Assembly: GCA_018675335.1 (NCBI GenBank)
Contig: JABGYH010000007.1
Location: forward strand, 468,986-532,985
Length of the DNA stretch: 64,000 bases
Direction: 5' to 3'
DNA from: Candidatus Woesearchaeota archaeon
Lineage (GTDB): Archaea > Nanobdellota > Nanobdellia > Woesearchaeales > UBA11576
A model generated the notes under the pieces. That model ran no database searches, had not been told where the DNA came from, and was given only the letters and a program-made list of their open reading frames with translations. The translations under genes were made by a program, and so were the position numbers. Shown here in pieces: positions 422-22,200 of this stretch (positions are counted from its first letter, which is position 1; each line of letters begins with the position of its first letter).

Positions 422-3400
422 TTGAAAAAAAGGGGTAATCGAAATATTTATAGATTTCACACTAATAAAAAAGGAAATATTATGCATGAAATGTATTTCT
501 TTATTTTCCAAGTATTTCTAATAGGAGTAGTAACTATCGCCCTTTTTCAATACGTAAATTCAGTTGCAACCGATATGAGTTTTGAAAAAAAATATGCAGC
601 ACTTGATGCAGGACTATTAATGTCAGTTGTGCAAACTGCTCCAGGATTTACCTTTCATAAATTTCAAGCACCCCATTTTGAAGAAATAAATAAAGATGCC
701 AAAGTACAAATGTATTTTCGAGATTCAGTAGTCGTCGTACACGAACTTGAAGAAATACAAGAATTTAAAGGAAAATTTATTCAAGACAGAAGTCTTATGA
801 ATTATTTAAAAAATGCATTATTTAATTTTGAAGAACCAATTTTTTACAAAGCAGGAAACAAAGTATTTGTAAGTGATAATTCTAATCAAAATCTTCATCA
901 ACAATTATGTTCAAACACAAACACAACATTTCCTGAATGGCGTGATGAAAAAACAATTCTTTTAAAAAAATTAGGAAAAGTTCCTGAAGCAAAAGCAATA
1001 GTTTCTGCAGTAATTGATCCTTCTCAAATGCCTTCCACTCTGCCTGGCGCCCCACAACAAATTGCAACAGATAATGAAATAGATCAATTCCTAGCACAAG
1101 AAGCCCAAAAATTAGGAGTTGAGTTTGTTTTTTTTAAAGCACTAACCATAGTTGAAGCAGGAGGTAAGTTTTTCTCAAGTGATGGTCGAATAGTAATTCG
1201 AATGGAGCCACATGTTTTTAATTCAAGACATTTAGGACCTGAGTTTAAAAAAGTTAAACGAGATGATGCAGGAAGTTGGGGAACTAGTACAATTAATGGG
1301 CGAATGATAGGTGGAGTTAGTTGTCAGGGGGGACAAGAAAATGAATACAAATGTTTTGAAAAAGCAATAACTATCAATGAAAAAGCAGCATACTTGTCAA
1401 TTAGTATGGGTGCACCACAAATTATGGGGTTTAATCATAAAACTGCAGGTTATTCTTCTCCTCAAGAAATGTTTAAAGACTTTCAAGCATCGGGACTTAA
1501 TCAAGTTAAAGGATTTATTAAATTTGTAGAAAATTATAGAACTTTACTAAAGTCTGCACAATCAAAAAACTTCGCATCATTTGGGCAAACATATAATGGT
1601 GATACTACTGGAAAATATGCAGCAAAACTTGAAAAAATATATAATCAACAAAAAATAAAATATAGTGGAGGATCAGCAGTTGCAACAAGTACGGGCGGCG
1701 CTAATTCTGTAAGTTCAGGTACTGTTCCAACAAGTGCATTAACAACCTCAATTGTGAATTCTATTTCCACATCTTTTTCTAGTTTTGGAGGAATTACCGG
1801 AATGGCAACGGGAGACACTGAAGAATCTGGTAAAGAAGGAAACGGGGGGAAAAAATTAGAAGATCTTGATCCTAAAGATTATGTATCTCACACAAGTGAA
1901 GATGCTGATAATGGCGAACTTGAGTCAGATTATAGTCATGTAGAATTAACAGAAGAAGATATTGGAGAATCTAGTTTGGTTGGAATGTCATTTGTTGATT
2001 TGAATGGACTGCCAATTGATTGCACTAAAGGATTATATGCAGAACAAACAATCGATACAACTCTTAAAGAAAAAATAGAAGCAAAAGCATTTGGATCAAA
2101 GAAAACACTCAAACAAGAAATAATTGAATCAGCAACAACAAAAGGATTTCATCCTGCAATGCTTGCAACATTTGCACAACTTGAAACAAATCTTGGAAAA
2201 GAAGATACTTGTCAAAAAACATATCAAAAAAGTATGATTACAAAATGTGGTGCAACTTCCCAAAATATTTGTTCAGATGGAACTAACACTGATCGAGCAC
2301 AACTTGATTGTACAATGAATGAAACTGATTTTGCGTATAGAACTGCGATTTCTGGACAAGATTTATTTGGAACTCCAAAATATACAAAATGCGATTATTT
2401 CTTTAAAGATTTAGATCCATTAAAAATTTGGAGTTGTATTTTTTGCTCTATGAAAGATAATAAACTTGCAAAAGAAGCAATAGGCAATTGTCAAAATGAA
2501 GACTTACCTCCTGAACAATGCACTGTTAATTGTGAATATTCCTCGAAGGTTTTATCAGAATATTGTTCTTGGTCAAATTATTTTGGGCCTGAATTTAAAC
2601 TTAATTCTGAAGCACAAGAAGAACAAATTAAAACAAGTACTTTAATTACTGAAGAAGATATAGAAAAAACTCAAGAAGTAACCACTTATTTTGATAAAAT
2701 AATAAAATTATTAACTGATGATTTAAACGCGCGTTATTCTATTAACGAACAAAAACCATCAATACAAATTGGTATTGGAGGACCAGGAGATGGGGAAGTA
2801 GATAAAGCACTTAAAATATTTATTTCTGCTGAATCAAAAGATATAGATTCTAATCGAAAACTTGCTTGTTTAATTATTAATGAACTTATGACTCCTGAAA
2901 GTGAAGTTGAATTCACACAAATAATTCCTGTGGCAACAGCTAAGTTGGGTGCGAATAATCCATTAAAATTTTTAGATTATGCGAGGGACGTTGATTCAAA
3001 TTCTGCAGGCGACCAAATCGACAAATCAAAACTTGTCGGATCAGAATCAAAGGTTGCCGTATTTATTGATTTAGGACGATTTGCACCCTCCGAAGTTCAA
3101 CCACAACAAATAGCATATGCAATTGATAATGCAGTAAGTAGATACTATGGAACAAAGCCCAAATATCAAGTGGATGGTTTTACAATCAAAGCAAAATATG
3201 GATTGCAAGATCAAATTAAATCATCACCTAGTTCTTGTCAACAAGCAAGTTCAAAAAAATTATTTTTACAATATCCTGCTCACCCAGATTACCCAGAGGG
3301 AAGGCAAGGAGAACTTGGCATGGTGTGGTTACCCAAACAAACACTATGTGGAGGATCCTTCCCTCTAATTATTATGCTTCACGGATGGAGAAATTCTGAG

Positions 3401-4861
3401 AAACCAAATGCAAATTTGTATTTAGGTGAAGATAGTACGCATGCATTTGATTTACTTGCGGAAGTTATGATTAATGCAGGCAAGATTCAACCAGTAATAA
3501 TCGCAGCTCCAATGGATGATCCAAAAAATGAACAAGAAATGAACAAACCTTATTGGAAACAAGATGAATATGATGTTACAACACACGTTGAAAAAATAAA
3601 TGAAGTACTTGCGTCAGATAAAATAACAATAAGTAGTGTTAGTGTGCTTGGTCATGGAAGTGCAATATGTGGTGGAGGAGTTAGACGAGCTGTTGAAAAT
3701 ATTCAAAACATAGATTTAAGTTCGAGCGCAGGAGCAGGACCAACAAAAGCAGCATTATATTTAGTTGGATTATTTGATGGTGGGTGTAATCAATTAAATT
3801 ATGCTCAGTTTGTAACCGAATCAATAAGTTCTGATAAAACAATTGTATCTCAGTTTCATAATGGACTTACAACTGGAGATGATAGTAGCGCAGATACATT
3901 AAAAGGAGAAACATCAGACAATTATTTAACACAAACAATTTATTCACAAAATTATCAAGAAGCATATAAAAATAAACTTAAACCTTGGTATACTTACAAA
4001 CTCAAGTTAAAAGATCAAGATATTTCTCACACTAAAGTTCCTGAAATTGGTTTTGCAGAATTACTTCTTGCGCATTTTAGTTTAGGTCAATCAGTTGTAA
4101 CTCCAAAATCAACGCAAACTGCAAGTATTTCACCTAGTCAAGGAACTCCAGGAACTGGAGGGGTGGATTATTCAAAAACAGAACTTCCCAAATTTAGTTC
4201 TTATAGTGAGTTCAAAAAACACTTCGCAAGTTTATCAACAGAACAAAAAATTGGGTTGTGGGGTTTTGGAAAGGCTAGAAAAGAAACAAGATATATAGTA
4301 TTTCATGATGGGGGAGGTTATGCATTAAAAACTCTAATTTGGGATTGGGCTGCAAGATCACAAAAATTAGATTATTTGCCTGAATGTCAAAGCAAACCTG
4401 AACTTTCAATTTGTCAGTCTAGACGAGTATCTTCACATTATCATATTGGATGTGATGGAACACTAACTGCTTTAATTCCAGATCACATAACTGCATTTCA
4501 TGCAGGATGCAATCCATCAAATCCTAGTTGTTATTTTAAAAGTGTAAATTCAAAATCTATAGGAATTGATTTTAGAAATTGTAAGAAATCAGGAGGAAGC
4601 CCATATACTGCAGAACAACATGCAGCAGGAAAACAATTGATGCAAACATTAAGTACTAAATATAATTTACCGTTAGATGATGATCATGTAGTTGCACACT
4701 TTGAAGTTGGGATGCATGGAGATCCATCCAAAGGATTTAATTGGGCTGCAGTAGGACTCACAGATCATAGAACTAATGGTTATTGTTGTAGACATCCAAC
4801 TGAGCAAAATTGTGCAAGGTATGTTTCAAAAGCAGGAGGAAGTAGTTGGTCTTGCGCGTAA
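422..4861 (+). CDS. Membrane-anchored multidomain peptidoglycan hydrolase: N-acetylmuramidase (PF11860/DUF3380-like) plus C-terminal N-acetylmuramoyl-L-alanine amidase (Amidase_2)
   Basis: 1479-codon ORF. GGGTGA at 410-415 lies 6 nt before TTG 422; the alternative start is ATG 482. N-terminal TM helix (FFIFQVFLIGVVTIALF). Residues ~215-410 match the muramidase family by eye (ALTIVEAGG with Glu codon at 1154, SMGAPQIMGFNHKTAGY, FASFGQTYNG). The last ~150 aa show Amidase_2 signatures (YIVFHDGGG; AHFEVGMHGDPSKGFNW, with His/Asp spaced as Zn ligands). A central esterase-like LIIMLHGW...VLGHGSA segment is uncertain. Confidence 0.8.
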   Translation: MKKRGNRNIYRFHTNKKGNIMHEMYFFIFQVFLIGVVTIALFQYVNSVATDMSFEKKYAALDAGLLMSVVQTAPGFTFHKFQAPHFEEINKDAKVQMYFRDSVVVVHELEEIQEFKGKFIQDRSLMNYLKNALFNFEEPIFYKAGNKVFVSDNSNQNLHQQLCSNTNTTFPEWRDEKTILLKKLGKVPEAKAIVSAVIDPSQMPSTLPGAPQQIATDNEIDQFLAQEAQKLGVEFVFFKALTIVEAGGKFFSSDGRIVIRMEPHVFNSRHLGPEFKKVKRDDAGSWGTSTINGRMIGGVSCQGGQENEYKCFEKAITINEKAAYLSISMGAPQIMGFNHKTAGYSSPQEMFKDFQASGLNQVKGFIKFVENYRTLLKSAQSKNFASFGQTYNGDTTGKYAAKLEKIYNQQKIKYSGGSAVATSTGGANSVSSGTVPTSALTTSIVNSISTSFSSFGGITGMATGDTEESGKEGNGGKKLEDLDPKDYVSHTSEDADNGELESDYSHVELTEEDIGESSLVGMSFVDLNGLPIDCTKGLYAEQTIDTTLKEKIEAKAFGSKKTLKQEIIESATTKGFHPAMLATFAQLETNLGKEDTCQKTYQKSMITKCGATSQNICSDGTNTDRAQLDCTMNETDFAYRTAISGQDLFGTPKYTKCDYFFKDLDPLKIWSCIFCSMKDNKLAKEAIGNCQNEDLPPEQCTVNCEYSSKVLSEYCSWSNYFGPEFKLNSEAQEEQIKTSTLITEEDIEKTQEVTTYFDKIIKLLTDDLNARYSINEQKPSIQIGIGGPGDGEVDKALKIFISAESKDIDSNRKLACLIINELMTPESEVEFTQIIPVATAKLGANNPLKFLDYARDVDSNSAGDQIDKSKLVGSESKVAVFIDLGRFAPSEVQPQQIAYAIDNAVSRYYGTKPKYQVDGFTIKAKYGLQDQIKSSPSSCQQASSKKLFLQYPAHPDYPEGRQGELGMVWLPKQTLCGGSFPLIIMLHGWRNSEKPNANLYLGEDSTHAFDLLAEVMINAGKIQPVIIAAPMDDPKNEQEMNKPYWKQDEYDVTTHVEKINEVLASDKITISSVSVLGHGSAICGGGVRRAVENIQNIDLSSSAGAGPTKAALYLVGLFDGGCNQLNYAQFVTESISSDKTIVSQFHNGLTTGDDSSADTLKGETSDNYLTQTIYSQNYQEAYKNKLKPWYTYKLKLKDQDISHTKVPEIGFAELLLAHFSLGQSVVTPKSTQTASISPSQGTPGTGGVDYSKTELPKFSSYSEFKKHFASLSTEQKIGLWGFGKARKETRYIVFHDGGGYALKTLIWDWAARSQKLDYLPECQSKPELSICQSRRVSSHYHIGCDGTLTALIPDHITAFHAGCNPSNPSCYFKSVNSKSIGIDFRNCKKSGGSPYTAEQHAAGKQLMQTLSTKYNLPLDDDHVVAHFEVGMHGDPSKGFNWAAVGLTDHRTNGYCCRHPTEQNCARYVSKAGGSSWSCA

Positions 4862-4910: not shown

Positions 4911-5483
4911 ATGAAGTTAAATTTTCAAACAAAAATCTTGAAGAACAAGAACGCATTAATTACATTTAACATACTTGCAATGATTCCTAGAATAATTTTT
5001 TTAATTCTTGCGATGATTGCAATAGTAATACTTGTAAGATTATTTGTCGTAGGTCAATTAGATATAGATCCTGTAATTGCAGATGTATTTGAACATTCAT
5101 TATTGTATTCTCCAGGAGGGATTTCATTTCATGATCCATTAACTGGAAGAATATATCCTGGAGTAATTGATGGAACTCAATTTGGAATAAACAAACTCGA
5201 TCTTAATAAATCACTTAGTTTAGGCAATAATCGATTAATTGCTGCAAGAATAAATTTAGAAACTTTTGCGCTTGAAGGAAAACCAATTGTTGTAGGATAT
5301 CCTATATTATTTTATAATGAAGATTGGTACTATAACTGGAAACCATTGGCTGATTTGAATAGTAATTTGAAAGGTCTTGGAAAAGCAGATTATCACGTTA
5401 GAACTTTACCTGTTGTAGTTAGAACAGTTCTTGGGCCATATCAAGGGAAATTAACAATAAGAATGATTATTCCTAGAGGCTAA
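4911..5483 (+). CDS. Hypothetical membrane-anchored protein (Lys-rich N-region plus one TM helix)
   Basis: 190-codon ORF starting 50 nt after the upstream stop, on the same strand. N-terminus is KILKNKNALITFNILAMIPRIIFLILAMIAIVILV. No catalytic motif recognised. Confidence 0.6.
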   Translation: MKLNFQTKILKNKNALITFNILAMIPRIIFLILAMIAIVILVRLFVVGQLDIDPVIADVFEHSLLYSPGGISFHDPLTGRIYPGVIDGTQFGINKLDLNKSLSLGNNRLIAARINLETFALEGKPIVVGYPILFYNEDWYYNWKPLADLNSNLKGLGKADYHVRTLPVVVRTVLGPYQGKLTIRMIIPRG

Positions 5484-5531
5484 GAGTGCAATATTATTTT
5501 TTTGATATATTATTTTTTTAAGAGGAATTTT

Positions 5532-6167
5532 ATGAGTTGGAAAAAATCAGTTAATAAGAATAGAAAAAAAATATTGAAAAATAAAAAAGGATTCATAGCA
5601 AGCGCTATAGTTGATTTATACGCATATATCGTATTTGTGTTAGTTGTTTTAGTCTTTTATTTTATTTTCAAATGGAGTGCAGATGCTGACATTGTAAAAT
5701 ATGAAGCTTATACTTTGAATAATCAAGGCAATTATTTGGTTTCAGTATATTTGAAATTGCCTGTTGATGTAGTATCTCAAGATACTCAATTAACAATGGG
5801 TGAATTAATGCTTCTTGCAGAGGGAGATTCTGATAAATATAAACCTGAATTAATATCGCAAACAAATATTTTTTTACAAAAATTTGCAAATAAAGATAGG
5901 TGTTATATCTTTTTTATTGAAACTGCGAATTGGAAACATTTAGATTATCCCACTAAGTGTAATCAATTTTTTTATGCGTATGGGTCAAACCCGAGTGAAT
6001 TGAATAATCGAATAATAAGATTTTTAGATACAAAAAAGTTTCCACACGAACAATATCAAACACTAATTCCTTCATTAAATTATGAGGGTGATGCAATAGA
6101 TGTACGATTTTATTATATTTCAGAAAGCGTATATGATTTTTATGGATTTAAAGATTTAGTAAATTGA
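5532..6167 (+). CDS. Hypothetical membrane-anchored protein with a class III (type IV pilin-like) signal-peptide-like N-terminus
   Basis: ATG 5532 is preceded by AGAGGA; the ORF-track TTG 5502 has no SD. N-terminus is KNKKGFIASAIVDLYAYIVFVLVVLVF, i.e. K-G-F-I-A-S followed by a hydrophobic helix. Confidence 0.6.
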   Translation: MSWKKSVNKNRKKILKNKKGFIASAIVDLYAYIVFVLVVLVFYFIFKWSADADIVKYEAYTLNNQGNYLVSVYLKLPVDVVSQDTQLTMGELMLLAEGDSDKYKPELISQTNIFLQKFANKDRCYIFFIETANWKHLDYPTKCNQFFYAYGSNPSELNNRIIRFLDTKKFPHEQYQTLIPSLNYEGDAIDVRFYYISESVYDFYGFKDLVN

Positions 6168-7704: not shown

Positions 7705-10674
7705 ATGAATAAAAAACAAAATGTTAAAAAATTGAAATCAATTTTTTTAGTTTTAACTTTAATTACTTTGTTAAGTTTAAGTTCTAGTTTTGTTTTTTCA
7801 GAAGAGGTTGCAGGAATTGATTTATGTTCTACTGCCAAAATTGCATTACTTGGAGATTCAATAACAAATTCAGCAGGGACTGCAGGGTGGGGTAATGAAC
7901 TTAGAAAATTATGCAATAATAATCCAATAAATTATGCTCACGGTGGAAAATTAACTATTTGGATGTTACAAAGATTAAAAGGAGAAAAGGATGACTCAAG
8001 CCCATATATTTCTGGAAAAATACTTGGTCAAGGTTATCAATACTTGATAGTAAAAGGAGGCACTAATGATATATCTTCGTCAAGATCTTTTGAACATATC
8101 ACAAATAATCTAGCTCAAATTTATTCGATTGCAAAGCAAGATGGAATAAAAGTAATCGCTGGAACTATTTCACCATATAATAAAGAACAAAATCCTGAAC
8201 GAAATGAATTAGTAAAACAAGTTAATAGTTGGATCAAACAACAACACTCAGAAGGAAAAATTGATGGAGTAATTGATTTTTATCAATTTCTTGTAGGAAC
8301 AGAACCATGTATGAATTCACAATATGCATCATCCTGTAATAATGTTCATCCTAATACTGCAGGATATAAAGCCATGGCTGAGAAAGTTAAATCAGAATTA
8401 TTTGGGTCTGGATCTGATGGTTCAATTAGTGCCACGCAAACTACGTCCATAAATTTAGGTGAGGGAGTAAAAATACTTCATATTGGAGATAGTCATAGTG
8501 CACAAACCTATGGAAAAGAACTTGCAGCTCAATTAAGAAGTGGTGGTGCTACGGTTAGACATTATGGGCAATGTGGATCAAGACCTTCTTGGTGGTTAGA
8601 AAAAGATTCTACTAAAAATGCAAATTCAGGAGTTTCTGGGCATGCAACAACTTGTGGTTCATTATTTATTTTAGAAGATGGCAAAAAAAATCTTGTAAAA
8701 ACAAGAGCCACCCCATTATTACCTAATTTAATGTCAGAGTTTAAACCAGATTATGTTGCAGTATCACTAGGTGCAAACTTACACGGATTTGTAAATAAAA
8801 AATCAGGAGATGAATGGTTTGTTACAAAAGCATCAAGACTAATGGCAGAACAAATAGTTGCAGCAGGTTCTAAATGTATTTGGATAGGAGTTCCACAAGG
8901 ACCTAATAAAGTTCATTTAGAAAATTTGTATGAACGGATTAAAGCAGGAGTTGGGGATAAATGCACATTTATTGATTCTCGACCACACTCTAATTTTGAT
9001 TTTTGTGGAAATGGGAAATCTTGTTGTTGTAGTGCGAATGTTCATTTTGATGCTCACGGCGCTGCAGGAAAAAATGCAGGTGCAAAATGGGCTCGTGCAA
9101 TATACGCAGAAATAAAAAAATCAGGAGTTTCAATGCCAACTCAAGTTGCAACTCAATCTTTAGTTCCAACTCAAGTAGTTCAAAAAGGGCCGCCTCCAAA
9201 ACCTGCATATTACAATTTTCAATTTTTTCCAATGGGATCTAAAACAACAGTTATTGGTCTTGCAAAAAGTCATTGGGGTCCGACACTTGTAAAACAAGAT
9301 TTAGCAAAAGACTGGGCAGATCTTTTTGGTGGGACTATTTTAGAAAGTAGTGCTGAAAATGCTTTAAGCATAAAATCTGATGTTTCACAAGATTTGAATA
9401 TGAATTTTAATCTTGTTGATGGAATATCTGTTAATACACCTGATTATGGTCAAATGACTTTAAATCCAACACAACAATGTCCGTCAGATATTTGTGAATG
9501 GGACCCAATGGAAAAAGGATTTAGTCGAGATAATATAGATGGACTTGTAATTCATTGTACTGTTGGAGGATCAGCAAAATCAACTGCAAATACTTTCAAA
9601 AAAAGAATGGCAGATCGTCTTAAAGAAAAGCCAGGTAAAAGATATAGTGGAGGAACACAATATGTTTTTGGACGTGATGGAAAATATATTCAACAAGTAA
9701 AAGAAGAAATGGGTCTTTATCATACTAGTGATTCTAAACGAGATAAAACAAATATTGGAATTGAAGTTGCAAATTCTGAAAGTTTATGTAAACAAGTTTG
9801 TACTGGGGGTGTATGTAAACCTGACGCTTGTCAAAAACCAAATGTTCCAACAGGCATTCCAGAATACAATTATTGGAAAAGTAAATCAACTAAATATTTA
9901 GAAACATATAGTGAAACTCAACTCAAAGCATTAGTAAAATTAAGTGCTGAAATTTTCTTAAGACAAAATTTGAAAATTGATGGACTCATAAGACATCTCG
10001 ATGTTACTATGAGTGGAAAAGGAACACATACTGATCCGGGACCTCATTTCCCTTGGGACAAATTCAAAAAAAATGTTTTAGCTGCAGTAAATGAATATAA
10101 AAAACAAGCAGGAAATGGTGCAGTTTCTGAAGGGGCAAGTAGTGGTAGTTTAACAAGTGCTCAAACAGGAGGAATTATTCCTGCAAATCCTGAAGGAAAT
10201 CATGATCCTGTGCCTCAAGTTTATACAAAATATAAACAATTAGAATCCGTTTATGGAACTACTGAATCAGGGATTAAATCTCAGTTAGTTAGTATTGATT
10301 TTATGGGGCGAAAAGTTCCTGTTCATAAAAACGCAAAAAAAGCATTTGAATATGTACTCGCAGATATTAAACAATGTCCTGAAGCACAAAGTTATCCTTA
10401 CTGGAGCACTGTTTGGACACACAATTATCGTTGTGTACTTCATAAAGGAACTCCTCCAAATTGTGACATTGGACTAAGTGCTCACAGTTTTGGAACTGCA
10501 ATTGATATAAATCCTAAAGGTAATCCCTATTCCAAAACAAAATTAGTTTATGATATTCCTCCTTGCGTTATTGGTGCATTTAAACGATATGGTTTTAGAT
10601 GGGGGGGAGATTGGAAAACTGCAAAAGATGCAATGCATTTTGAGTTTATGGGAAATCCTGCAAGTTTGGCTTGA
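7705..10674 (+). CDS. Secreted four-domain cell-wall hydrolase: SGNH esterase, second SGNH-like domain, Amidase_2, peptidase M15 (VanY/Hedgehog-type)
   Basis: Signal peptide KKLKSIFLVLTLITLLSLSSSFVFS. SGNH blocks are IALLGDSITNS, KGGTNDI and VHPNTAGYKAMA. Second domain has ILHIGDSHSAQ...VHFDAHGAAG. Amidase_2 signatures are LVIHCTVGG, NIGIEVAN and RHLDV...THTDPGPHFPW. M15 Zn motif is SAHSFGTAIDINP (H-x6-D, His codon at 10483) plus DAMHFEF (His codon at 10636). Confidence 0.85.
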   Translation: MNKKQNVKKLKSIFLVLTLITLLSLSSSFVFSEEVAGIDLCSTAKIALLGDSITNSAGTAGWGNELRKLCNNNPINYAHGGKLTIWMLQRLKGEKDDSSPYISGKILGQGYQYLIVKGGTNDISSSRSFEHITNNLAQIYSIAKQDGIKVIAGTISPYNKEQNPERNELVKQVNSWIKQQHSEGKIDGVIDFYQFLVGTEPCMNSQYASSCNNVHPNTAGYKAMAEKVKSELFGSGSDGSISATQTTSINLGEGVKILHIGDSHSAQTYGKELAAQLRSGGATVRHYGQCGSRPSWWLEKDSTKNANSGVSGHATTCGSLFILEDGKKNLVKTRATPLLPNLMSEFKPDYVAVSLGANLHGFVNKKSGDEWFVTKASRLMAEQIVAAGSKCIWIGVPQGPNKVHLENLYERIKAGVGDKCTFIDSRPHSNFDFCGNGKSCCCSANVHFDAHGAAGKNAGAKWARAIYAEIKKSGVSMPTQVATQSLVPTQVVQKGPPPKPAYYNFQFFPMGSKTTVIGLAKSHWGPTLVKQDLAKDWADLFGGTILESSAENALSIKSDVSQDLNMNFNLVDGISVNTPDYGQMTLNPTQQCPSDICEWDPMEKGFSRDNIDGLVIHCTVGGSAKSTANTFKKRMADRLKEKPGKRYSGGTQYVFGRDGKYIQQVKEEMGLYHTSDSKRDKTNIGIEVANSESLCKQVCTGGVCKPDACQKPNVPTGIPEYNYWKSKSTKYLETYSETQLKALVKLSAEIFLRQNLKIDGLIRHLDVTMSGKGTHTDPGPHFPWDKFKKNVLAAVNEYKKQAGNGAVSEGASSGSLTSAQTGGIIPANPEGNHDPVPQVYTKYKQLESVYGTTESGIKSQLVSIDFMGRKVPVHKNAKKAFEYVLADIKQCPEAQSYPYWSTVWTHNYRCVLHKGTPPNCDIGLSAHSFGTAIDINPKGNPYSKTKLVYDIPPCVIGAFKRYGFRWGGDWKTAKDAMHFEFMGNPASLA

Positions 10675-10721
10675 TTTTAAAATTATTATTTATTAGAATT
10701 CCAAATGAATTAAAACAAAAA

Positions 10722-12707
10722 ATGAATCAAAACAAAACATGTAAAAAATTGAAAGCGATGTTTGTATTTTTAATTGTATTAGGTTTATTTATTCAATTGA
10801 TTAGTTTATCTGTTGCAGAAGAAATTAGTGAATCTGATTTGAATAATTTTAGTGCTGATTTAATTAATTATCCTGATGATATACTTGACATAGATTATGA
10901 TTTAGGAGAAAAAATTATTTATTTTACAATAGAATCAAATTCAGGAAAAATTAATATTGGAGATTTATTTATTTTTAATAAAGACTATACTCTTCCTGAT
11001 TATTCTGAAGATTTAGAATTAAAATATTTAGTTGAATTCTATGATTTTTATGGAACTCTTTTATCTTCTGAAGAAACATCTGAAATTTATGTTGGTGTTA
11101 TGAATCCTGCAACAGAAAAAATTGTAATAAAAAAAGATCAAATAATAGTTTATGAACATAGTTTTGACGTAAACATTCAAAAATTAAACTCGATTTCAAA
11201 TAATCTCGAAAAATATATTTTTATTGAATCAGTATTAACTGATGATGATGTAAAATTTAACAAAGCATATGTTATTGAAGATAATTCGTTTTATTCAGGA
11301 CTTTTTTTGAAACATTCAGGACCTCTCGATTATGAAAAAGTATACTTAGTATTATCTTCTTCAGATAATCCTTCAGTATTTGAATTGGAATATGATTATT
11401 TAGCATTTCAATATGATGTTGAGGATATCCAAACATTAGATCCTGAACTCAAACCTGATGATTCATTTTTACCTTTACTCAATTCAGAAAAAAAGAAAAA
11501 ACTTATTAAAATTGAAATGGACGCTAAAGACGATTATGAACTATTATTATTTAATTCGTTAACAAAATTATTACAAATTTATCAACCTAATTTATGGGGG
11601 TTTGATGAACTAATGTATCAGAGATCTATTGATTTTTGTGATGGTGATGGGATTTGCGAGCCTTGCTTTAGTGATGATTGTTTAGTTTCTGAAACTTTCG
11701 CATCTTGCGGGGATTGTAGTTCTGGAAGTTTAGATAATTATTGCGATTTAAGATCTGATGGGGTTTGTGATCCTGATTGCGAAGGCTATGATTTAGATTG
11801 TGGATTTTGTGAAAAAGATCGGGGCTGTTTATTATCTTCTAAATCATTTGAAGAAATAAGTTGTGACACTATTGGTGGATTTAATTGTTTAACTGATATG
11901 AGTTGTTATGACGGATTAGTTGTTGACACACTCGATTCGGGAATTTGTTGCGTTGGTGGTTTTTGTCAAGCAGACTATTATGGTGCTTTATATGATTTTG
12001 AATCGGAACCTGAGTTTGATATTGAATATGATGAAAAGGGAGTTGTTCAAATATTTAAACCAACAATTGTTGACTTGGATAATTCTCAATTAGCTAACTC
12101 TTTGTCACCATTACCTTTTGAACAAAATATTAATTTATTATCTGCAGAAGCTGCAGAACAAAAAATAATGGAAGATTTTAGTACTATTGATTTTGAAATT
12201 TCAAAAACTGGAGAAGCAGTACCTAAAGAAATAGTTGAGTTAGAAGAAAGCGAAAAAGAATTTGAAAAATCAATGCAACAAGATTTTGAACAAACAAGTC
12301 AAGAAATAAATTCACCACTAAAACCATATTCATTTTTGTTTATATTTATTTTAATTATAGTTGTTATTTTAATTGTGTTTGCGTTTATTGTATCTTTTGT
12401 TAGAAATTCAAAAAAACAAATACCTCTAACTAAAGAGTATAATTCTAAACAATTTGCGCAACCAACCACTCAAGTAAATCAAAGATCAACTCAACAATTT
12501 GCGCAACCAACTAATAAGTTATCTGCACAAAATCAACCTGCCTACTATGATTTACAAAAAATAATAACTGACATGGTGAAAAGAAGATATAATTATTCTC
12601 AAATAAAACAAATATTAATTAAAAAAGGATACTTATCTTCAAATGTAGATTCAGAAATAAGAAAACACTATTCCAATTTTACTCAAAAATATGGTGTGAG
12701 AAAATAA
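10722..12707 (+). CDS. Cys-rich surface protein with signal peptide, C-terminal TM anchor and short cytoplasmic tail
   Basis: ATG 10722 yields a canonical signal peptide (KKLKAMFVFLIVLGLFIQLISLSVA/EE), whereas TTG 10671 overlaps the upstream stop. Cys-rich core is CDGDGICEPCFSDDC...CDPDCEGYDLDCGFC. TM segment is YSFLFIFILIIVVILIVFAFIV. The tail contains a QFAQPT repeat. Confidence 0.65.
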   Translation: MNQNKTCKKLKAMFVFLIVLGLFIQLISLSVAEEISESDLNNFSADLINYPDDILDIDYDLGEKIIYFTIESNSGKINIGDLFIFNKDYTLPDYSEDLELKYLVEFYDFYGTLLSSEETSEIYVGVMNPATEKIVIKKDQIIVYEHSFDVNIQKLNSISNNLEKYIFIESVLTDDDVKFNKAYVIEDNSFYSGLFLKHSGPLDYEKVYLVLSSSDNPSVFELEYDYLAFQYDVEDIQTLDPELKPDDSFLPLLNSEKKKKLIKIEMDAKDDYELLLFNSLTKLLQIYQPNLWGFDELMYQRSIDFCDGDGICEPCFSDDCLVSETFASCGDCSSGSLDNYCDLRSDGVCDPDCEGYDLDCGFCEKDRGCLLSSKSFEEISCDTIGGFNCLTDMSCYDGLVVDTLDSGICCVGGFCQADYYGALYDFESEPEFDIEYDEKGVVQIFKPTIVDLDNSQLANSLSPLPFEQNINLLSAEAAEQKIMEDFSTIDFEISKTGEAVPKEIVELEESEKEFEKSMQQDFEQTSQEINSPLKPYSFLFIFILIIVVILIVFAFIVSFVRNSKKQIPLTKEYNSKQFAQPTTQVNQRSTQQFAQPTNKLSAQNQPAYYDLQKIITDMVKRRYNYSQIKQILIKKGYLSSNVDSEIRKHYSNFTQKYGVRK

Positions 12708-12710
12708 AAA

Positions 12711-15700
12711 TTGAAAACTATGGTTTATGCAAATAATAAAAGTAAAAACAAGAATAAGTTTAGAATGAATTTATTAGTTTTAACTATCTTGTTTATATTT
12801 TTAGTATCATTAGTTTCTGTTCAAGCAATAACTTATGCACAACATTCGCCAAAATGGAAACCTGAATGGAATGATTACATTGCCGAAGGAATTGACACAA
12901 AAGCACCCAAGTTACTTGATGAAACTTTTTTACCGCCAGATGCTTTTGAAATATGTCCTGGATTAAAAGGATCGAGCACAGATCAAAAAAAAGCATTTTG
13001 GGCATTATTTTTCGCATCATTTGCTAAATTTGAATCAGGATTTAATCCTGGAACTACATTTGACGAAAAAGCACTATCTCAAAAATACGGAAAAGAAATA
13101 ATTAGTGAAGGCCTCTTGCAATTAAGTTATGGTGATGGAAAAAATCATCCTCCTTGTGAAATAAGTAAAGCAAAACAAAATGTTCAAGATCCAAAAGTAA
13201 ATCTTCAATGTGGCACAGTAATTATGAAAAATCAAATAATTAAAAAAGGAGTTTTATTTCCTGATGGTAAACATTATTATTGGTCAGTTCTAACAAAAAA
13301 TAGGGCTAATGGTGTTGAAACATACAAAAAAGTTCAAGATTATTTTTTAAAATATGCCCCTCAATTAGGTTTTTGTGGGGAGGGGGATGTAAGTTCTGCT
13401 AGTTCTCAATCAAGTTGTCAACTAACAACCAATGCACAACCAAATGAATTTAAAAATATGTTAATTTTAGGAAATGTTGAAGAGTCAGTTCGAGTTAAAC
13501 GAATTAATGGCGCATATGAATTAATGCAAAAAGGCAATTATGAAAATATTATAGTTTCTGGAGGGTGTGGTGCACATAAATCTGCAAAAGACAATTGTGA
13601 ATCAGTACACATGGCGAAATTATTAGAACAAAAAGGAGTTTCTTCCGATAAGATATATCAAGAAGGAAAATCTGGAAGCACAAATTCTAATTATAAAAAT
13701 TCCATAAAATTAACTAAACCTGATGGTTCTTTAGTTTTTAAACCAGGAGAAAAAACAGTTGTTGTCTCAAATCATCCGCATGCAAAATCAGTTGCATATT
13801 GTTTAAGATATGTTAATAAAATTGATGCATATTATTATATTGTGGGTGAATCATCTGTTCCTATGATAGTTCCAGAGGATTCTAAAGTAAATTATGCAGG
13901 AATGGTTACTAGTTGTATGCTTTCAAAAAAAGAAGTCGAATGTGCTTCTGCAGTAGAAGGTTCAGGCGTTGTTTCACAAACTCCTCCTTCAAGTATATCA
14001 CAATCAGGAGTATTTGTTCCACAAATATCCTACTTACCAACATTTTCTAGTACTTTTCGTAAAACTGATTATTCATTTAATCCTTCATTTAGACTTGATG
14101 TCGCTTACGATTTTGAAATATATAATAAAATAGTTGAGCAAGTAAAAGAATTGAAGCGATGTAAGGGAGACGTTGATTGCGTTGAAGAAGAATTAAAACA
14201 AAGATCAAATAATTTGTGGATGGGAAAAATATTTTCAGATGTTCAAAAAGCAACTGGTGGAGACGAACTTTTTTCATTTTGGATGGGAAAACACGCAGGG
14301 CGAATAGTAAATGAAGAAACTAAAACTCTTGAAAATTCTATAGGAATTGATGTTGGAGAAGTTCCTGAATGGAATTTATATTGTGAAAATCCTGCAGAAG
14401 ATGCAGTAAGTTCAATTGCAGAATTTATTGATGATTGTGCACGAGTAAAAGATACAAATTGTTATTGTGAATTTGAAACCCCTGAACGATTTGTTAATTT
14501 ATTTATTGATTTTGATGTTAGACTTAATTCTAATCCTAGTTCAAAAAATGTTGTTATAAGTTTACCTGAACCTCTCGAAGTCGATCAAAGTATTTACTCA
14601 GGAGAATATGGTTTGTTTGGGAGTAGTTTATTTGGAGATAAGTATAAATTTAATTCAAAATCATTTGAAGTTTCTGATGCGCTACTTTATACTGTTCGAG
14701 ATAATAGTCTTATGACTGATGCGTTAGATTTTGTAACTATGCAAGATACGCCCGAAGGAAAATTTTTAGTTGGTAATTTTGATTTTGAGCTTGATGAATA
14801 CAGTTCAATATATTTAACAAAAAATTCTTCTGAAATTGATATGGGACTTTATTTTGATGTTCCTGATTCTAGCATGAAACAATGTGATATGGAACAAACA
14901 CCAATGAGATTTTTTAAATTCTGTGTTAAATCATTTTCTACATTTTACGCATTTGATCCGCAAAAGAAAAAATTAGAAGAAAAAGACGTTGTAATAAAAT
15001 TTGCAGAAATATTTAGGACATCACTTCCTGAAGTACAAAATTTTAAAGCAATGAGTTTATACGGATTTGAAGGTGGAACCTGGGTTATGTGGGATGAAAT
15101 TACTGAAGGGGACATGGATTCATATCAGATTTTTGTTTTGGATCCGTCCAAATCAGGAAAGATAAGTAAAATATCTCCTGAAGAAGCACTAGTAAAACAA
15201 TTTAGTGGAGACTTAGGAGATGTCAAATTAGAAAAAATAGATGTTAGTAGTTCTGAAGAGATACAATCAATTGATTTAACTCGATTTATATGTTCCGATG
15301 CAACTGACACTTGTACCATTTCTTACGAAGGAGAATCCGAACAGGGATCTGCAATTGAATTATTACCTGAACAATTATACTATGTTAAACAAGGACATTA
15401 TTATCTTTATTTTATTCCGGAACTTGAAATTGGAAAAAATTATTGGATGGGAATATATGGGGTTGATGTTGATGATTATAAATCTCCTGCAATTACTGGA
15501 ATAACTGCCAAATCTGAAGATAAATTACCTCCTGCAATTGTAAATTTAGAAGTTGAGGAAGTCACATTTAAAGAAGAAGAAGCGGGAACTGTAAGATTCT
15601 TTGTAACTGAAATTCCTTCATATAATTTAGATGGGACTGAACTGAACTTTACTGAAATATCTCGAATTGATTTATTTTGTGCAAATACTGCAACACCTCA

Positions 15701-15917
15701 AATTGGTTCTAATTTAGCTGAACAAAAAATAGTAAGTTTGGGTGCACTACCCTTCCCAGTTTTAGAAGTTACACATCCATTCTCCGCATTAAAAACTTGT
15801 CCAAAAGATTTAGATCAAACATCTCATTTTTTTGCAATTGCTGTTGATAAATCAGGAAATTCATTTAAAGGAGAATTTCCAACAGATTATACTTATCCTC
15901 TCTTCTTTAGTGAATGA
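12711..15917 (+). CDS. Exported lytic transglycosylase (SLT-like) plus DUF218/YdcF-like domain protein with a large C-terminal region of unknown function
   Basis: SLT signatures are FAKFESGFNP (Glu codon at 13032) and EGLLQLSYGDG. A DUF218-like segment is IIVSGGCGAHKS...YQEGKSGSTNSNYKNS. N-terminal anchor is FRMNLLVLTILFIFLVSLVSVQA. The C-terminal end carries FN3-like AVDKSGN. Start is TTG 12711 or ATG 12720. Confidence 0.75.
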   Translation: MKTMVYANNKSKNKNKFRMNLLVLTILFIFLVSLVSVQAITYAQHSPKWKPEWNDYIAEGIDTKAPKLLDETFLPPDAFEICPGLKGSSTDQKKAFWALFFASFAKFESGFNPGTTFDEKALSQKYGKEIISEGLLQLSYGDGKNHPPCEISKAKQNVQDPKVNLQCGTVIMKNQIIKKGVLFPDGKHYYWSVLTKNRANGVETYKKVQDYFLKYAPQLGFCGEGDVSSASSQSSCQLTTNAQPNEFKNMLILGNVEESVRVKRINGAYELMQKGNYENIIVSGGCGAHKSAKDNCESVHMAKLLEQKGVSSDKIYQEGKSGSTNSNYKNSIKLTKPDGSLVFKPGEKTVVVSNHPHAKSVAYCLRYVNKIDAYYYIVGESSVPMIVPEDSKVNYAGMVTSCMLSKKEVECASAVEGSGVVSQTPPSSISQSGVFVPQISYLPTFSSTFRKTDYSFNPSFRLDVAYDFEIYNKIVEQVKELKRCKGDVDCVEEELKQRSNNLWMGKIFSDVQKATGGDELFSFWMGKHAGRIVNEETKTLENSIGIDVGEVPEWNLYCENPAEDAVSSIAEFIDDCARVKDTNCYCEFETPERFVNLFIDFDVRLNSNPSSKNVVISLPEPLEVDQSIYSGEYGLFGSSLFGDKYKFNSKSFEVSDALLYTVRDNSLMTDALDFVTMQDTPEGKFLVGNFDFELDEYSSIYLTKNSSEIDMGLYFDVPDSSMKQCDMEQTPMRFFKFCVKSFSTFYAFDPQKKKLEEKDVVIKFAEIFRTSLPEVQNFKAMSLYGFEGGTWVMWDEITEGDMDSYQIFVLDPSKSGKISKISPEEALVKQFSGDLGDVKLEKIDVSSSEEIQSIDLTRFICSDATDTCTISYEGESEQGSAIELLPEQLYYVKQGHYYLYFIPELEIGKNYWMGIYGVDVDDYKSPAITGITAKSEDKLPPAIVNLEVEEVTFKEEEAGTVRFFVTEIPSYNLDGTELNFTEISRIDLFCANTATPQIGSNLAEQKIVSLGALPFPVLEVTHPFSALKTCPKDLDQTSHFFAIAVDKSGNSFKGEFPTDYTYPLFFSE

Positions 15918-19000: not shown

Positions 19001-19273
19001 ATGAATATAAAAGAAGAGAGACTTGCAAGAGGACTTAGTGCGAACTCTCGCAGACAGATTCTAAAACTTATTTCAGACCAAGAATTAACAGTAAAAGATA
19101 TTGCGCAACAAACAAACATGAGTGTATCATTAACTTCTAGACATTTAACATTACTTTATGATTTAGGTTTTTTAAATTTAAGAATAAAGCATCCAAACAA
19201 GTTCTATTCATTAAAAATTAAGGAATTAAAAGATTTATTGAAAGTTTATGATAAGGTAATTAAAAAACTATGA
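19001..19273 (+). CDS. ArsR/SmtB-type winged-helix transcriptional regulator
   Basis: SRRQILKLISDQELTVKDIAQQTNMSVSLTSRHLTLLYDLGFL is a typical ArsR HTH. Its stop TGA (19271-19273) overlaps ATG 19270 of the giant gene. Confidence 0.75.
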   Translation: MNIKEERLARGLSANSRRQILKLISDQELTVKDIAQQTNMSVSLTSRHLTLLYDLGFLNLRIKHPNKFYSLKIKELKDLLKVYDKVIKKL

Positions 19274-22200
19274 ACTCAATTAATTTGAAACAAATTAGTG
19301 AAAGCCAAAAATTGGCAATGGTTTTAATAGTTACATTACTTATTGGTATTGGTGGAATTCTTAGTATAAATTTAAATTCAACAAATGTGGGAGTTGCGTC
19401 TGAAAATAACAATAATTTGTTTTCAGATTCAATTAATAGTTTCTTTTCTAGTAAAATGGGATTAACTGGATATTCCGTAAAAGACTCAGGAATTTTAGAT
19501 GTTGGGGTTGATGATAGCAGCGAGAATGAAAATTTGTTAGAGGTTCAAGGAGAATGGACTGGTTGTCAATCAGGGCCTATATTAACTCCTGGAATTTTTA
19601 CATTAACTCAAGATGATACTACTACTGAAACTTGTTTCCTTATAAGTACTGATGATTTGTGGATAGATTGTCAAGGGCACACGTTTACTAATGATCTGGG
19701 AGATTCAGGTGTTTATGTAAGTAATAGCAGGGATAATATTTCAGTTTTTAACTGTACTTTTATTAATTTTAGTTCTGGTGTAGATATTCATGGAGCGAGT
19801 ATTGGCTCAAATATTTCTTATGTAAACATTTATAATTCAGTATATGGAATTAAATTAGGATCAACTTCGGGAGGAGTTACAAATAGTTATTTTATTAATA
19901 ATCAAATCATAAATACAACTCAAGAAGCAATTAAATTTGATTCATTTGAAACAAATACTGGAAATTATTTTATTAATAATTATTTACAAAATTTTTCAAA
20001 AGGCTTTTTAATTGTTTCTGAGGATTCTGCAATAAATTATTTTTATAATAATCAATTAATTAATGGAACTATATTTGGATTTCAATTTGGTCAAAATACT
20101 ACTTCCATATTGATAAATAATACAATATCAAATGTTTTACAACGAAGTTTAGAACTTAATAGTGATGCTGAAGTAGAATCAATTGATACTACCCTAATAA
20201 ATGCAGGGTTATATGCAATAGATGATACAACAGATCCTGGCAATTATAGTTCACTGATTTATAATAATTCATTTGGTTTAATTAATTGGACAAAAGAAGA
20301 TCTTACAATTGGCGCGTTTGATTTAGAAGTTGGTTCAACAATATTTTTAGAAGAGAATAATATTGGTTTGGCAGACTTACCGGGGCTATCATCTCTTGAT
20401 TCTTTTGCACAAATAGAAATTAAGGGAGTTGATTTTACTGGGGATCCACAACTGGTTAAATTAGGAACTAATTGTAGCAGTCCAAATTGTAATGTAACGT
20501 CTTCTCTATCTGGACAATATGTCAAAGCAGATGTTAATGGTTTTAGTAATTACTCAATATATCAAGAAGAAACAACTCAAGAATATTTTACTTTTCAGAT
20601 TAATACCAGTCATATTGCTGGAACTAATTTTTCATTTCAGGCCGACGATGCGAATTTAACAGTTTGGTGGAATGAAACAAACTACACAAATTACGTTGAT
20701 TATGATGGACTAATGTGGCATAATTATTCTACTGAGGGAATTTACAATATTTCAGTAAATGGAACTGCATCAAGAATATCATTTTATGAAGGAACTGAAG
20801 ATGCACTAATAGACATACTAACAAATGTATCAAATGGGGTTAGTGGAATTACTAGTGCTTATAGAATGTTTATGGATGCAGATAATTTTGGAATAACTCC
20901 ATTAACTGAACCTAATTTCTTTGATGAGCTTTCTGAAAATATAACTACGTTGCAAAGCATATTTTCTTCATCGAGTTTTAATCAAGATGTTAGTAATTGG
21001 AATGTTTCTAATGTAATTACTATGTCTGAATCGTTTTCAAATTCGCCTTTTAACCAAAATATCGATAATTGGGATGTATCTAATGTTAAAGATATGAGTT
21101 TAATGTTTAATTATGCTCAAGATTTTAATCAAAATCTTAGCAACTGGAATGTTTCAAATGTTTTAGATATGCGCAACATGTTTTCAGGAGCATTTGATTT
21201 TAATGGAAATATAACTGATTGGGATGTTTCTAATGTAATTAATATGAATTCAATGTTTAATAATGCATTAAATTTTAATCAAAACATAAGTTCGTGGAAT
21301 GTTTCTAATGTTACTAACATGGGATATATGTTTAGAAGTACTTATGATTTTAATCAAGATATTGGTTCTTGGGACGTCTCGAATGTTGAGCAAATGGATT
21401 TTATGTTTAATATTGTTTCTGATTTTAATCAGGATATTAGTGCTTGGAATGTTTCTAAAGTTACTAATATGAACTCTATGTTTAGACAATCAGAAAGTTT
21501 TAATCAAAACTTAAGTTCTTGGGATGTTTCAAATGTTCAAAATATGCGTAATATGTTTTATAATTCTGTTTTTGATCAGGATATAAGTTCTTGGAATGTT
21601 TCTAATGCGGTTGATATGAGTTATATGTTTTATGATTCTATTTTTGATCAGAATATTAGTTCTTGGGATGTGTCGAATGTAACTGATATGACACACATGT
21701 TTCAAAATTCAGATTTTAATCAAAATATTAGTAGTTGGAATGTATCTAATTTGATTGATATGGGTTATATGTTTTGGAATTCTCAGTTTAATCAAAGTAT
21801 TGGTGAGTGGGATGTATCAAGTGTAACTAATATGAATAGTACATTTATTTATTCTCAGTTTGATCAGGATATAAGTTCTTGGAATGTTTCTAATGTGGTT
21901 GATATGAGTTACATGTTTTATGACTCTTTCTTTGATCAGGATATTGGTGCTTGGAATGTTTCTAGTGTGACAGATATGAGCGGCATGTTTGAAAGTTATC
22001 AATTATCTCGAGAAAATTATGATAGTTTGTTAAATGGTTGGGCTGAATTAACATTGACTGATTCAGTAATTTTTGGTGCAGGAAATTCACAATATTGTTT
22101 AGGTGAGACTGCTAGAAATTCAATATTAACAAATGAATCAGAATATAATTGGACAATTACTGATGGTGGAAAAAATTGTAGTGGTATAAGTTTTGATCCA

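Follow-up and report, generated by a model that had tools for sequence, protein, structure and literature searches.

The locus and the layout of the protein

The DNA analysed here is a stretch of 64,000 nucleotides from contig JABGYH010000007.1, referred to below as the window. Its forward strand carries a single unbroken open reading frame (ORF; 7705..10674) encoding a protein of 989 amino acids (aa). This protein consists of four enzyme modules on one chain, in the order SGNH, SGNH, Amidase_2 and M15. A first-pass annotation of the same DNA had described one secreted polypeptide in which four wall-active catalytic domains follow one another in exactly this order, and the boundaries reported here agree with it within a few residues. 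The ATG of the ORF sits 11 bp past the stop of the upstream gene. An identical 989-aa protein with identical neighbours is called in independent assemblies on seven contigs, the longest of 564 kb; therefore, an assembly or frame artefact is excluded.

The N-terminus is probably a Sec signal peptide. In a Kyte–Doolittle scan, residues 12-31 form the sole hydrophobic segment of the entire protein, and the predicted cleavage site follows from the −3/−1 rule. Alternatively, this segment could serve as an uncleaved signal anchor. Between the second and third modules lies a linker or unassigned segment (aa 480-568) for which Pfam gives no match and AlphaFold assigns predicted local distance difference test (pLDDT) values below 50 over most of the segment. 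Sequence comparison revealed in this linker a 'KTTVIGLAK' piece which resembles the leader ahead of the M15 domain in P0165 and P0167 (P numbers designate retrieved proteins). The chain contains 23 cysteines.

The two SGNH domains

The first SGNH domain is readily recognised by Pfam, where matches were judged at the gathering cut-offs. Lipase_GDSL_2 (PF13472) covers aa 49-223 (E 6e-20, 72.9 bits versus a cut-off of 32.9), and Lipase_GDSL (PF00657) matches with an E-value of 1.1e-15 (58.8 bits versus 23.6). The residues Ser52 (in the GDS motif), Gly80/81, Asn121 (in GGTND) and His215 are kept in eight homologues and align to the solved structures 7toj and 7tog. Bacteroides GDSL acylhydrolases are also found among the PDB sequence matches of this domain, and Ape1 is not among them at E ≤ 0.01.

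The second is a real SGNH domain which Pfam misses for this sequence: the query segment itself yields no match to the SGNH clan and stays below the DUF459 threshold. The first-pass annotation had proposed a GDSHS-type unit here (8452-9115, aa 250-471), and homologues, invariant residues and a structural model all support this assignment. With aa 241-482 as query, phmmer was run exhaustively against 1.84 billion cluster representatives and retrieved 482 proteins at E ≤ 1e-3, which are mostly stand-alone and 210-260 aa long. In an alignment of 62 sequences, the Asp-Ser of block I, the Gly-x-Asn of block III and the His of block V are invariant, and the Gly of block II is nearly so. The corresponding residues of the protein are Ser263, Gly291, Asn358 and His447. 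Lipase_GDSL_2 is matched by 48/62 of these relatives, DUF459/PatB (PF04311) by 42/62 and SGNH_AT3, the AT3-fused SGNH family, by 14/62. Furthermore, an AlphaFold2 model of the domain based on 35 sequences reaches a mean pLDDT of 86.5 and a predicted template modelling score (pTM) of 0.87. In Foldseek this model matches crystal structures of DUF4886, TesA, Cj0610c/PatB and Axe2 with a probability of 1.0 and template modelling (TM) scores of 0.39-0.56; a phage tail fibre SGNH appears at rank 25. The family profile matches Ape1 (4k3u, 1.8e-6) and PatB (8tlb, 1.1e-5).

Neither SGNH domain, each of ~185-235 aa, contains an inserted module such as the CBM35-like one of the Ape1 type. Among the ORFs scanned in the window, no MBOAT or AT3 acetyl-donor partner was found. 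The second domain carries a Cys-rich insert (9004..9030, aa 434-442) of the pattern C-x5-CCC (C434, C440-442), which is conserved in P0006, P0010 and P0017, its nearest homologues of Woesearchaeota type.

The amidase and the peptidase

Amidase_2 (PF01510) is matched with an E-value of 1.7e-13 (51.5 bits versus a cut-off of 26). His617, Glu687, His764 and Asp777 do not vary across three Woesearchaeota-type units and have counterparts at the aligned positions of AmiD and AmpDh2. Homologous units occur in P0165 (37%) and P0084 (31%). A four-Cys insert in the amidase (9787..9831, aa 695-709, C-x3-C-x4-C-x4-C) is conserved in both of these proteins. The Cys-rich inserts of the amidase and of the second SGNH domain could represent disulfide staples or a metal site.

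The C-terminal module matches Peptidase_M15_4 (PF13539) over aa 924-980 (E 5.5e-19, 69 bits versus a cut-off of 25). Arg909, His927, Asp934, Asp975 and His978 are all in place, the SxHxxGxAxD and DxxH motifs are present, and the module aligns to Ply500 (2vo9) and LysB4. These two L-Ala-D-Glu peptidases are its nearest solved relatives, at low identity. Foldseek searches with a low-confidence model of the C-terminal half of the protein returned AmiD, AmpDh2, AmpD, Ply500, LysB4 and VanXYc.

Relatives and module shuffling

Full-length searches covered an index of 5.8 billion clusters (word-based, best 8000 candidates), the GTDB species genomes, IMG/VR and the JGI metagenome contigs. Besides the identical copies, no protein among the matches listed from these four sources covers more than 26% of the query. 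Scans of GTDB, IMG/VR and JGI contigs gave only short M15 or amidase matches, some of them on phage contigs; such locus scans rest on six exact peptide patterns, and absence from them is no proof. In a local census with hidden Markov models, the four-module combination was present only in the query among 225 fetched proteins. The domain order had been described as unfamiliar by the first-pass annotation, and indeed no other protein with this combination occurs among the matches listed.

This apparent uniqueness applies to the exact chain and not to its theme, since mosaic proteins of ~1000 aa in Woesearchaeota-type genomes use the same modules. Eight matches of this size share the signal peptide and the first SGNH domain (44-66% identity) and then differ, continuing with DUF218, SLT, M15_4 or Metallophos. 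On the same chain as their homologue of the first domain, P0004, P0005 and P0008 carry SLT, and P0002 carries M15_4. P0006/P0158 carries the second domain (49% identity) behind a CE4 deacetylase and ahead of 3D and Metallophos. Other homologues of the second domain are joined to SLT (P0104, and P0010 with two tandem SGNH copies), to SLT and Amidase_2 (P0084, Woesearchaeota), to VanY (P0019), to CHAP and GH46 (P0058), to 3D (P0086, as in P0006) and to 3D/DUF2272 with FGE-sulfatase. The JGI name for the homologues is 'lysophospholipase L1-like esterase'.

P0165 is the sole relative found with both C-terminal modules, which it carries in reversed order, M15 and then Amidase_2. Its frame (L008 1..1420) is open to the contig start and the protein is thus N-terminally incomplete; the complete version may include an SGNH domain, as does P0167, which combines SGNH and M15. 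The contig of P0165 has a GC content of ~49-51% and therefore belongs to a different kind of organism. In summary, the exact four-module chain appears unique, and the protein is a member of a mosaic wall-active family which reshuffles common modules. As judged from sequence, this family of ~1000-aa proteins resides in Woesearchaeota-type genomes, where the modules are mixed with SLT, CE4, 3D, DUF218 and Metallophos.

Archaeal setting and gene cluster

The surrounding genes include a RadA/Rad51 family member (E 4.7e-80), PCNA, a replication protein A-type OB-fold protein with DUF2240, the proteasome-activating ATPase (PAN) and a Hef-type ERCC4 helicase-nuclease. The GC content is uniform along the window (0.26-0.34), and the only named homologues are labelled 'Candidatus Woesearchaeota archaeon'. 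On this sequence evidence, the window is assigned to an archaeon resembling Woesearchaeota (DPANN), an origin which the first-pass annotation had overlooked.

The ORF belongs to a co-oriented gene cluster in which neighbours are separated by spacers of 4-50 bp or overlap by 4 bp (Table 1). The first gene combines a muramidase with a second Amidase_2 domain, and the ~850 aa between these two units are Cys-rich and have no assignment. The two Amidase_2 domains of the window show very little relationship to each other (E 0.003 over 52 aa), and a recent duplication was rejected on this basis. The Metallophos module, which is fused to the C-terminus of mosaic proteins in relatives, is encoded here by a separate gene. 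Further downstream, the SLT domain (aa 52-207) of the 1068-aa protein escapes Pfam; its closest structure is 6ta9, the DslA enzyme of Bdellovibrio. After DUF218, ~650 aa of the same protein have no assignment. Beyond the cluster lies the ORF of a 6908-aa surface protein, a possible adhesin of an episymbiotic archaeon. A small helix-turn-helix gene (19001..19273) is located directly ahead of it. In the 64-kb window, no tRNA gene and no Rfam family at the gathering threshold were found.

Table 1. Modules of the 989-aa protein and features of the surrounding genes (window coordinates; TM, transmembrane segment)
Feature	Coordinates	Strand	Evidence and remarks
Whole ORF, four-module wall-active protein, predicted exported	7705..10674	+	989 aa incl. 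stop; alignment to homologues P0002-P0009 begins at residue 1
Probable Sec signal peptide, aa 1-32	7705..7800	+	Lys-rich n-region, hydrophobic core aa 12-31, V-F-S before EE
SGNH/GDSL esterase domain 1, aa 46-228	7840..8388	+	Pfam PF13472, PF00657; PDB 7toj, 7tog; homologue motif conservation
SGNH domain 2, DUF459/PatB-like branch, aa 246-479	8440..9141	+	phmmer homologues, invariant residues, AlphaFold model, Foldseek
Linker or unassigned segment, aa 480-568	9142..9408	+	Pro/Thr/Gln-rich part, then ~60 aa without family match
Amidase_2 unit, aa 569-804 (Pfam core aa 609-780)	9409..10116	+	Pfam 1.7e-13; AmiD, AmpDh2, AmpD alignments; Foldseek; P0165, P0084 homologues
M15 (VanY/LAS-type) Zn peptidase, aa 845-985 (Pfam core aa 924-980)	10237..10659	+	Pfam; PDB 2vo9, 6akv; AlphaFold; Foldseek 2vo9, 6akv, 4mut
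Membrane-anchored Muramidase (PF11860, E 6e-34, near N-terminus) with C-terminal Amidase_2, 1479 aa	422..4861	+	Pfam
Small TM protein, 190 aa, without family match	4911..5483	+	
Small TM protein, 221 aa, without family match	5502..6167	+	
Calcineurin-like phosphoesterase (Metallophos), N-terminal TM, 492 aa	6216..7694	+	11 bp upstream of the 989-aa ORF
Signal sequence, Cys-rich region, C-terminal TM, 678 aa, no family match	10671..12707	+	Overlaps the stop of the 989-aa ORF by 4 bp
Exported protein, SLT then DUF218, 1068 aa	12711..15917	+	PDB 6ta9, E 1.2e-15
Surface protein, 6908 aa: DUF285 repeats, beta-helix, Laminin_G_3, C-terminal TM anchor	19270..39996	+	~3 kb beyond the cluster

An analogous cluster exists in a related genome (JGI sample 3300072015, one of the source samples besides ENA ERZ27237606; 537,707-bp contig; L002 3270..13597). 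There, a 2041-aa protein (Pur_ac_phosph_N) is followed by a small protein, a 1198/1205-aa protein with CE4, domain 2, 3D and Metallophos, another small protein and a 1033-aa protein with SGNH, DUF218 and M15_4. Compared with the window, the same modules are spread over the genes differently. Between the small TM proteins of the two clusters, no homology could be detected.

Target and proposed mechanism

We consider it probable that the protein is an exported, multi-catalytic, murein-degrading enzyme of a tiny, probably parasitic Woesearchaeota-like DPANN archaeon, aimed at bacterial walls as a weapon or for feeding. The analysis established the ORF, the four folds and the core residues of their active sites, as well as the archaeal surroundings, the gene cluster and the reshuffling of modules among relatives; we infer export, the bacterial target, the bond specificities, the esterase substrate and the cooperation with neighbouring enzymes.

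Because the producer has no murein, the substrate would be the bacterial wall of a host, a prey, a competitor or debris. The autolysin or endolysin frame chosen by the first-pass annotation has to be abandoned for the same reason: the window is archaeal, hence the substrate must belong to another organism. An autolysin role is ruled out as the producer is archaeal, and an endolysin or prophage origin is ruled out by the flanking archaeal cellular genes on a contig of ~560 kb. Pseudomurein is an unlikely substrate: it contains neither N-acetylmuramic acid (MurNAc) nor D-amino acids, and all the modules belong to bacterial or phage types.

The following sequence of events can be proposed. The N-terminal signal would first route the protein through Sec. 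Outside the cell, Amidase_2 would cleave the MurNAc-L-Ala bond, and M15 would cut the stem peptide, most likely at L-Ala-D-Glu given that its nearest solved relatives are Ply500 and LysB4. The two SGNH modules would remove acyl groups that are O-linked to the glycan, the most plausible candidate being the 6-O-acetyl group of MurNAc. As a result, the strands would be opened to the neighbour-encoded muramidase (422..4861) and to the SLT/DslA-like enzyme (12711..15917).

Removal of the 6-O-acetyl group is the best-supported option for two reasons. First, the family of the second domain overlaps PatB (DUF459) and OatA-type SGNH proteins, and its profile matches Ape1 and PatB; DUF459 is the PatB family of peptidoglycan O-acetyltransferases (PMC9487903). 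Second, both SGNH types recur in fusions with SLT or 3D, glycan-cleaving modules which O-acetylation blocks. O-acetylation at C6 of MurNAc is an obstacle to lysozymes and lytic transglycosylases (PMC6174289, PMC6627197). That peptidoglycan de-O-acetylation is indeed the activity of the SGNH modules is nonetheless a tentative proposal, to which we give somewhat less than an even chance.

The first-pass annotation had suggested that de-O-acetylation, amidase and peptidase activities act in synergy on O-acetylated murein. To our knowledge, there is no report of O-acetylation blocking amidases or stem-peptide peptidases, and the esterases would therefore chiefly benefit the neighbouring muramidase and SLT enzyme rather than the amidase and M15 modules to which they are fused. 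What stands of the suggestion is the effect of O-acetyl groups on lysozymes and transglycosylases; the advantage to the fused modules is doubtful. The glycosidases are encoded here by neighbour genes and, in relatives, are fused directly to these SGNH modules.

Points that weigh against a murein-directed enzyme

Several observations weigh against this interpretation. Both SGNH domains lack the triad aspartate: the first reads Asn212-Asn-Val-His215 where 7toj reads D-F-L-H, and the second has no block V Asp, with Ala444 in a position where the family consensus is G-D-G-x-H. In the amidase, His775 occupies a position where Lys is usual and is invariant in three related units. The reference Lys lies two residues before the last zinc ligand, and we take it to be Lys128 of T7 lysozyme and Lys162 of AmpD; Lys772 is located three residues upstream of His775. 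The assertion of the first-pass annotation that all ligand residues are present is thus correct for M15, for the zinc ligands and Glu of the amidase and for Ser, Gly, Asn and His of the SGNH domains; it fails for the triad Asp of both SGNH domains and for the amidase Lys.

The specificity of the SGNH domains for peptidoglycan, also put forward at that time, is likewise putative. The best sequence matches of the first domain among solved structures are the acetyl-xylan esterases 7tog and 7toj (7toj E 3.4e-12). The fold matches of the second are generic for SGNH proteins (TM scores ≤ 0.56) and do not separate Ape, PatB and lipase; in its profile search, TesA and a generic lipase come out on a par with Ape1 and PatB, and TesA ranks even above Ape1. 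In addition, the AlphaFold model of the C-terminal half is weak (mean pLDDT 58.9), with an M15 part that is confident (pLDDT 70-92). The protein has no recognised cell-wall-binding domain (LysM, SH3, PG_binding, SPOR or similar; Pfam at E ≤ 1), and nothing in the four-module chain would breach an outer membrane.

Alternative explanations

The foremost alternative, possible but less likely than not, confines the action on murein to the amidase and M15. The SGNH domains would act on a shielding layer, such as an acetylated capsule or exopolysaccharide, teichoic acids, the O-antigen of lipopolysaccharide or membrane lipids, so that outer layers are stripped first and peptide stems are cut afterwards. 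This view accommodates the similarity of the first domain to acetyl-xylan esterases and Bacteroides GDSL acylhydrolases, and the presence of TesA, a thioesterase/lysophospholipase, among the top profile and fold matches of the second. It also agrees with the JGI label of the homologues, with the lipase and tail-fibre families which the protein matches in PHROGs and with the phage tail fibre SGNH found by Foldseek. However, the cluster lacks any lipid- or polysaccharide-specific module, both SGNH types are repeatedly joined to SLT, 3D, VanY, CHAP and Amidase_2, and the PatB family is matched by most relatives of the second domain.

A nutritional role with the same chemistry is rather unlikely. 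Free murein fragments and the walls of necromass would be digested for amino sugars and amino acids by an archaeon of reduced metabolism, without any attack on living bacteria. DPANN archaea have been described as taking up building blocks from outside and as recycling cellular material (PMC9723730). Neither a binding domain nor a pore-forming toxin nor an injection system is encoded in the window, and the enzymes seem to be either soluble or attached to the surface of the producer, all of which would suit a scavenger. Set against this are the 6908-aa adhesin-like surface protein adjoining the cluster, the resemblance of a neighbour gene to DslA of the predator Bdellovibrio and the heavy module shuffling in relatives, which is more suggestive of an arms race. 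Feeding and attack are, moreover, not mutually exclusive.

It is improbable that one or both SGNH domains are non-hydrolytic, acting either as weakened carbohydrate-binding modules or as acyl-transferases of the PatB/OatA kind. The missing acid residue in both domains (Asn212 and Ala444), the closeness of the second domain family to the transferase families DUF459/PatB and SGNH_AT3 and the lack of another binding domain in the protein would fit such a role. Nevertheless, Ser, Gly, Asn and His are retained and are invariant or conserved among relatives, and many CE2 esterases work with a Ser-His dyad (PMC9487903). In the whole clade of the first domain (eight homologues), the position three residues before the His is variable and occupied by N, G or D. 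The active site of the second domain looks derived rather than decayed because its nearest subclade (P0006, P0010b, P0017, P0019) keeps both the replacement motif N-x-H-F-D-x-H-G and the Cys-rich insert. Among the ORFs scanned in the window there is no PatA/MBOAT or AT3 partner, and an extracellular transferase would lack a donor.

Finally, a phage or virus endolysin, or bacterial DNA misjoined to an archaeal contig, is highly improbable: the M15 part is 37-48% identical to segments of IMG/VR viral contigs, and both the amidase and the M15 part have matches among the endolysin families of PHROGs, but the viral matches span only 60-120 residues, no viral structural genes lie nearby, archaeal housekeeping genes surround the gene on both strands in DNA of uniform base composition, the same gene and neighbours recur on the seven contigs from independent assemblies, and the signal peptide and SGNH domain are common to Woesearchaeota-named proteins.

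Significance

Hosts are known for a minority of DPANN archaea, and all of these hosts are archaea. An exported enzyme set which is sensible only against bacterial murein would constitute direct genomic evidence for antagonism between an archaeon and bacteria, or for feeding on them. To the single lytic domains known from archaea so far, the locus would add a chain of four modules including candidate modification-removing esterases. The PatB-like SGNH subfamily, repeatedly joined to lytic domains, is a candidate new class of peptidoglycan de-O-acetylases; if this is true, its members could supply enzybiotic parts against lysozyme-resistant O-acetylated pathogens.

A more far-reaching scenario, which we regard as speculative and unlikely to be correct in all its parts, is that of a surface-deployed murein-stripping apparatus in a Woesearchaeota-type DPANN parasite or predator of bacteria. 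Here, the SGNH modules would be the first archaeal esterases for O-acetylated peptidoglycan with an acid-less Ser-His site, licensing the muramidase and the DslA-like enzyme. The fused amidase and L-Ala-D-Glu peptidase would detach the stems, the 6908-aa protein would mediate adhesion, and the module shuffling would reflect an arms race against the wall modifications of bacteria. If this scenario is true, sequence-level markers would become available for DPANN lineages with bacterial rather than archaeal hosts.

Comparison with known systems

The concept of archaea carrying wall-cutting enzymes is already known. What is new is the combination of two acid-less SGNH domains, an amidase and an M15 peptidase without a binding domain, together with a PatB-like SGNH subfamily attached to lytic modules. 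Archaeal peptidoglycan hydrolases were shown in experiments to kill bacteria, and the same survey reports them to be prominent in Nanoarchaeota (Strock et al. 2025, PMC12352652). In metagenome-assembled genomes of Woesearchaeota, large lytic murein transglycosylases have been reported, and a predatory way of life was suggested for this group (Vigneron et al. 2022, PMC9723730). Another case of these transglycosylases is AR20 (Castelle et al. 2015, cited in PMC9723730). The present protein shares with the enzymes of both studies their bacterial-type genes, a signal peptide, domain shuffling and a target polymer absent from the producer, features which were read there as antagonism or predation. 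The differences lie in the modules. Strock et al. defined their hydrolases by at least one catalytic and at least one recognised wall-binding domain (PMC12352652), a definition that does not cover the 989-aa protein, and the Woesearchaeota reports concern GH23/SLT domains, in contrast to SGNH, SGNH, Amidase_2 and M15 here. SGNH appears in neither text (PMC12352652, PMC9723730), nor does a chain of four catalytic modules; Amidase_2 and M15 are not in Strock et al. A literature search on SGNH plus endolysin found no description of a fusion of this sort.

With Ape1 and PatB (4k3u/4k40, 7tjb, 8tlb), the two SGNH domains share the fold and the Ser of block I, Gly of block II, Asn of block III and His of block V, as well as the proposed logic of coupling de-O-acetylation to lytic transglycosylases. 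Unlike Ape1, they have no CBM35-type insertion and no block V Asp, and the similarity of the second domain is no stronger than that to TesA. Furthermore, they are fused to lytic modules and their producer is archaeal.

Phage endolysins such as Ply500 and LysB4, and autolysins, are likewise modular chains with an Amidase_2-type amidase, a stem-peptide peptidase or both, and the zinc ligands and DxxH motif of the M15 module align with those of Ply500. Endolysins and autolysins with two catalytic domains, among them LysK-type enzymes (CHAP and Amidase_2) and Atl (amidase and glucosaminidase), usually bind the wall through a dedicated domain and do not exceed two or three catalytic modules, in contrast to four modules and no binding domain here. 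We know of no SGNH esterase modules in Ply500, LysB4, LysK-type enzymes or Atl. The setting also differs from a lysis cassette, being cellular and archaeal, with predicted export through Sec.

A functional parallel may be drawn with Bdellovibrio bacteriovorus, in which several enzymes, CE4 deacetylases and DslA, first modify and then cleave foreign murein (PMC7511926). DslA is a lysozyme which acts on N-deacetylated prey peptidoglycan (PMC7511926). Candidate counterparts of these enzymes are the DslA-like SLT domain of the 1068-aa neighbour at the archaeal locus and, in the sister protein P0006/P0158, a CE4 domain in the place of the first SGNH domain. In Bdellovibrio these activities reside in separate proteins of a bacterial producer, whereas several modules are joined here in one chain.

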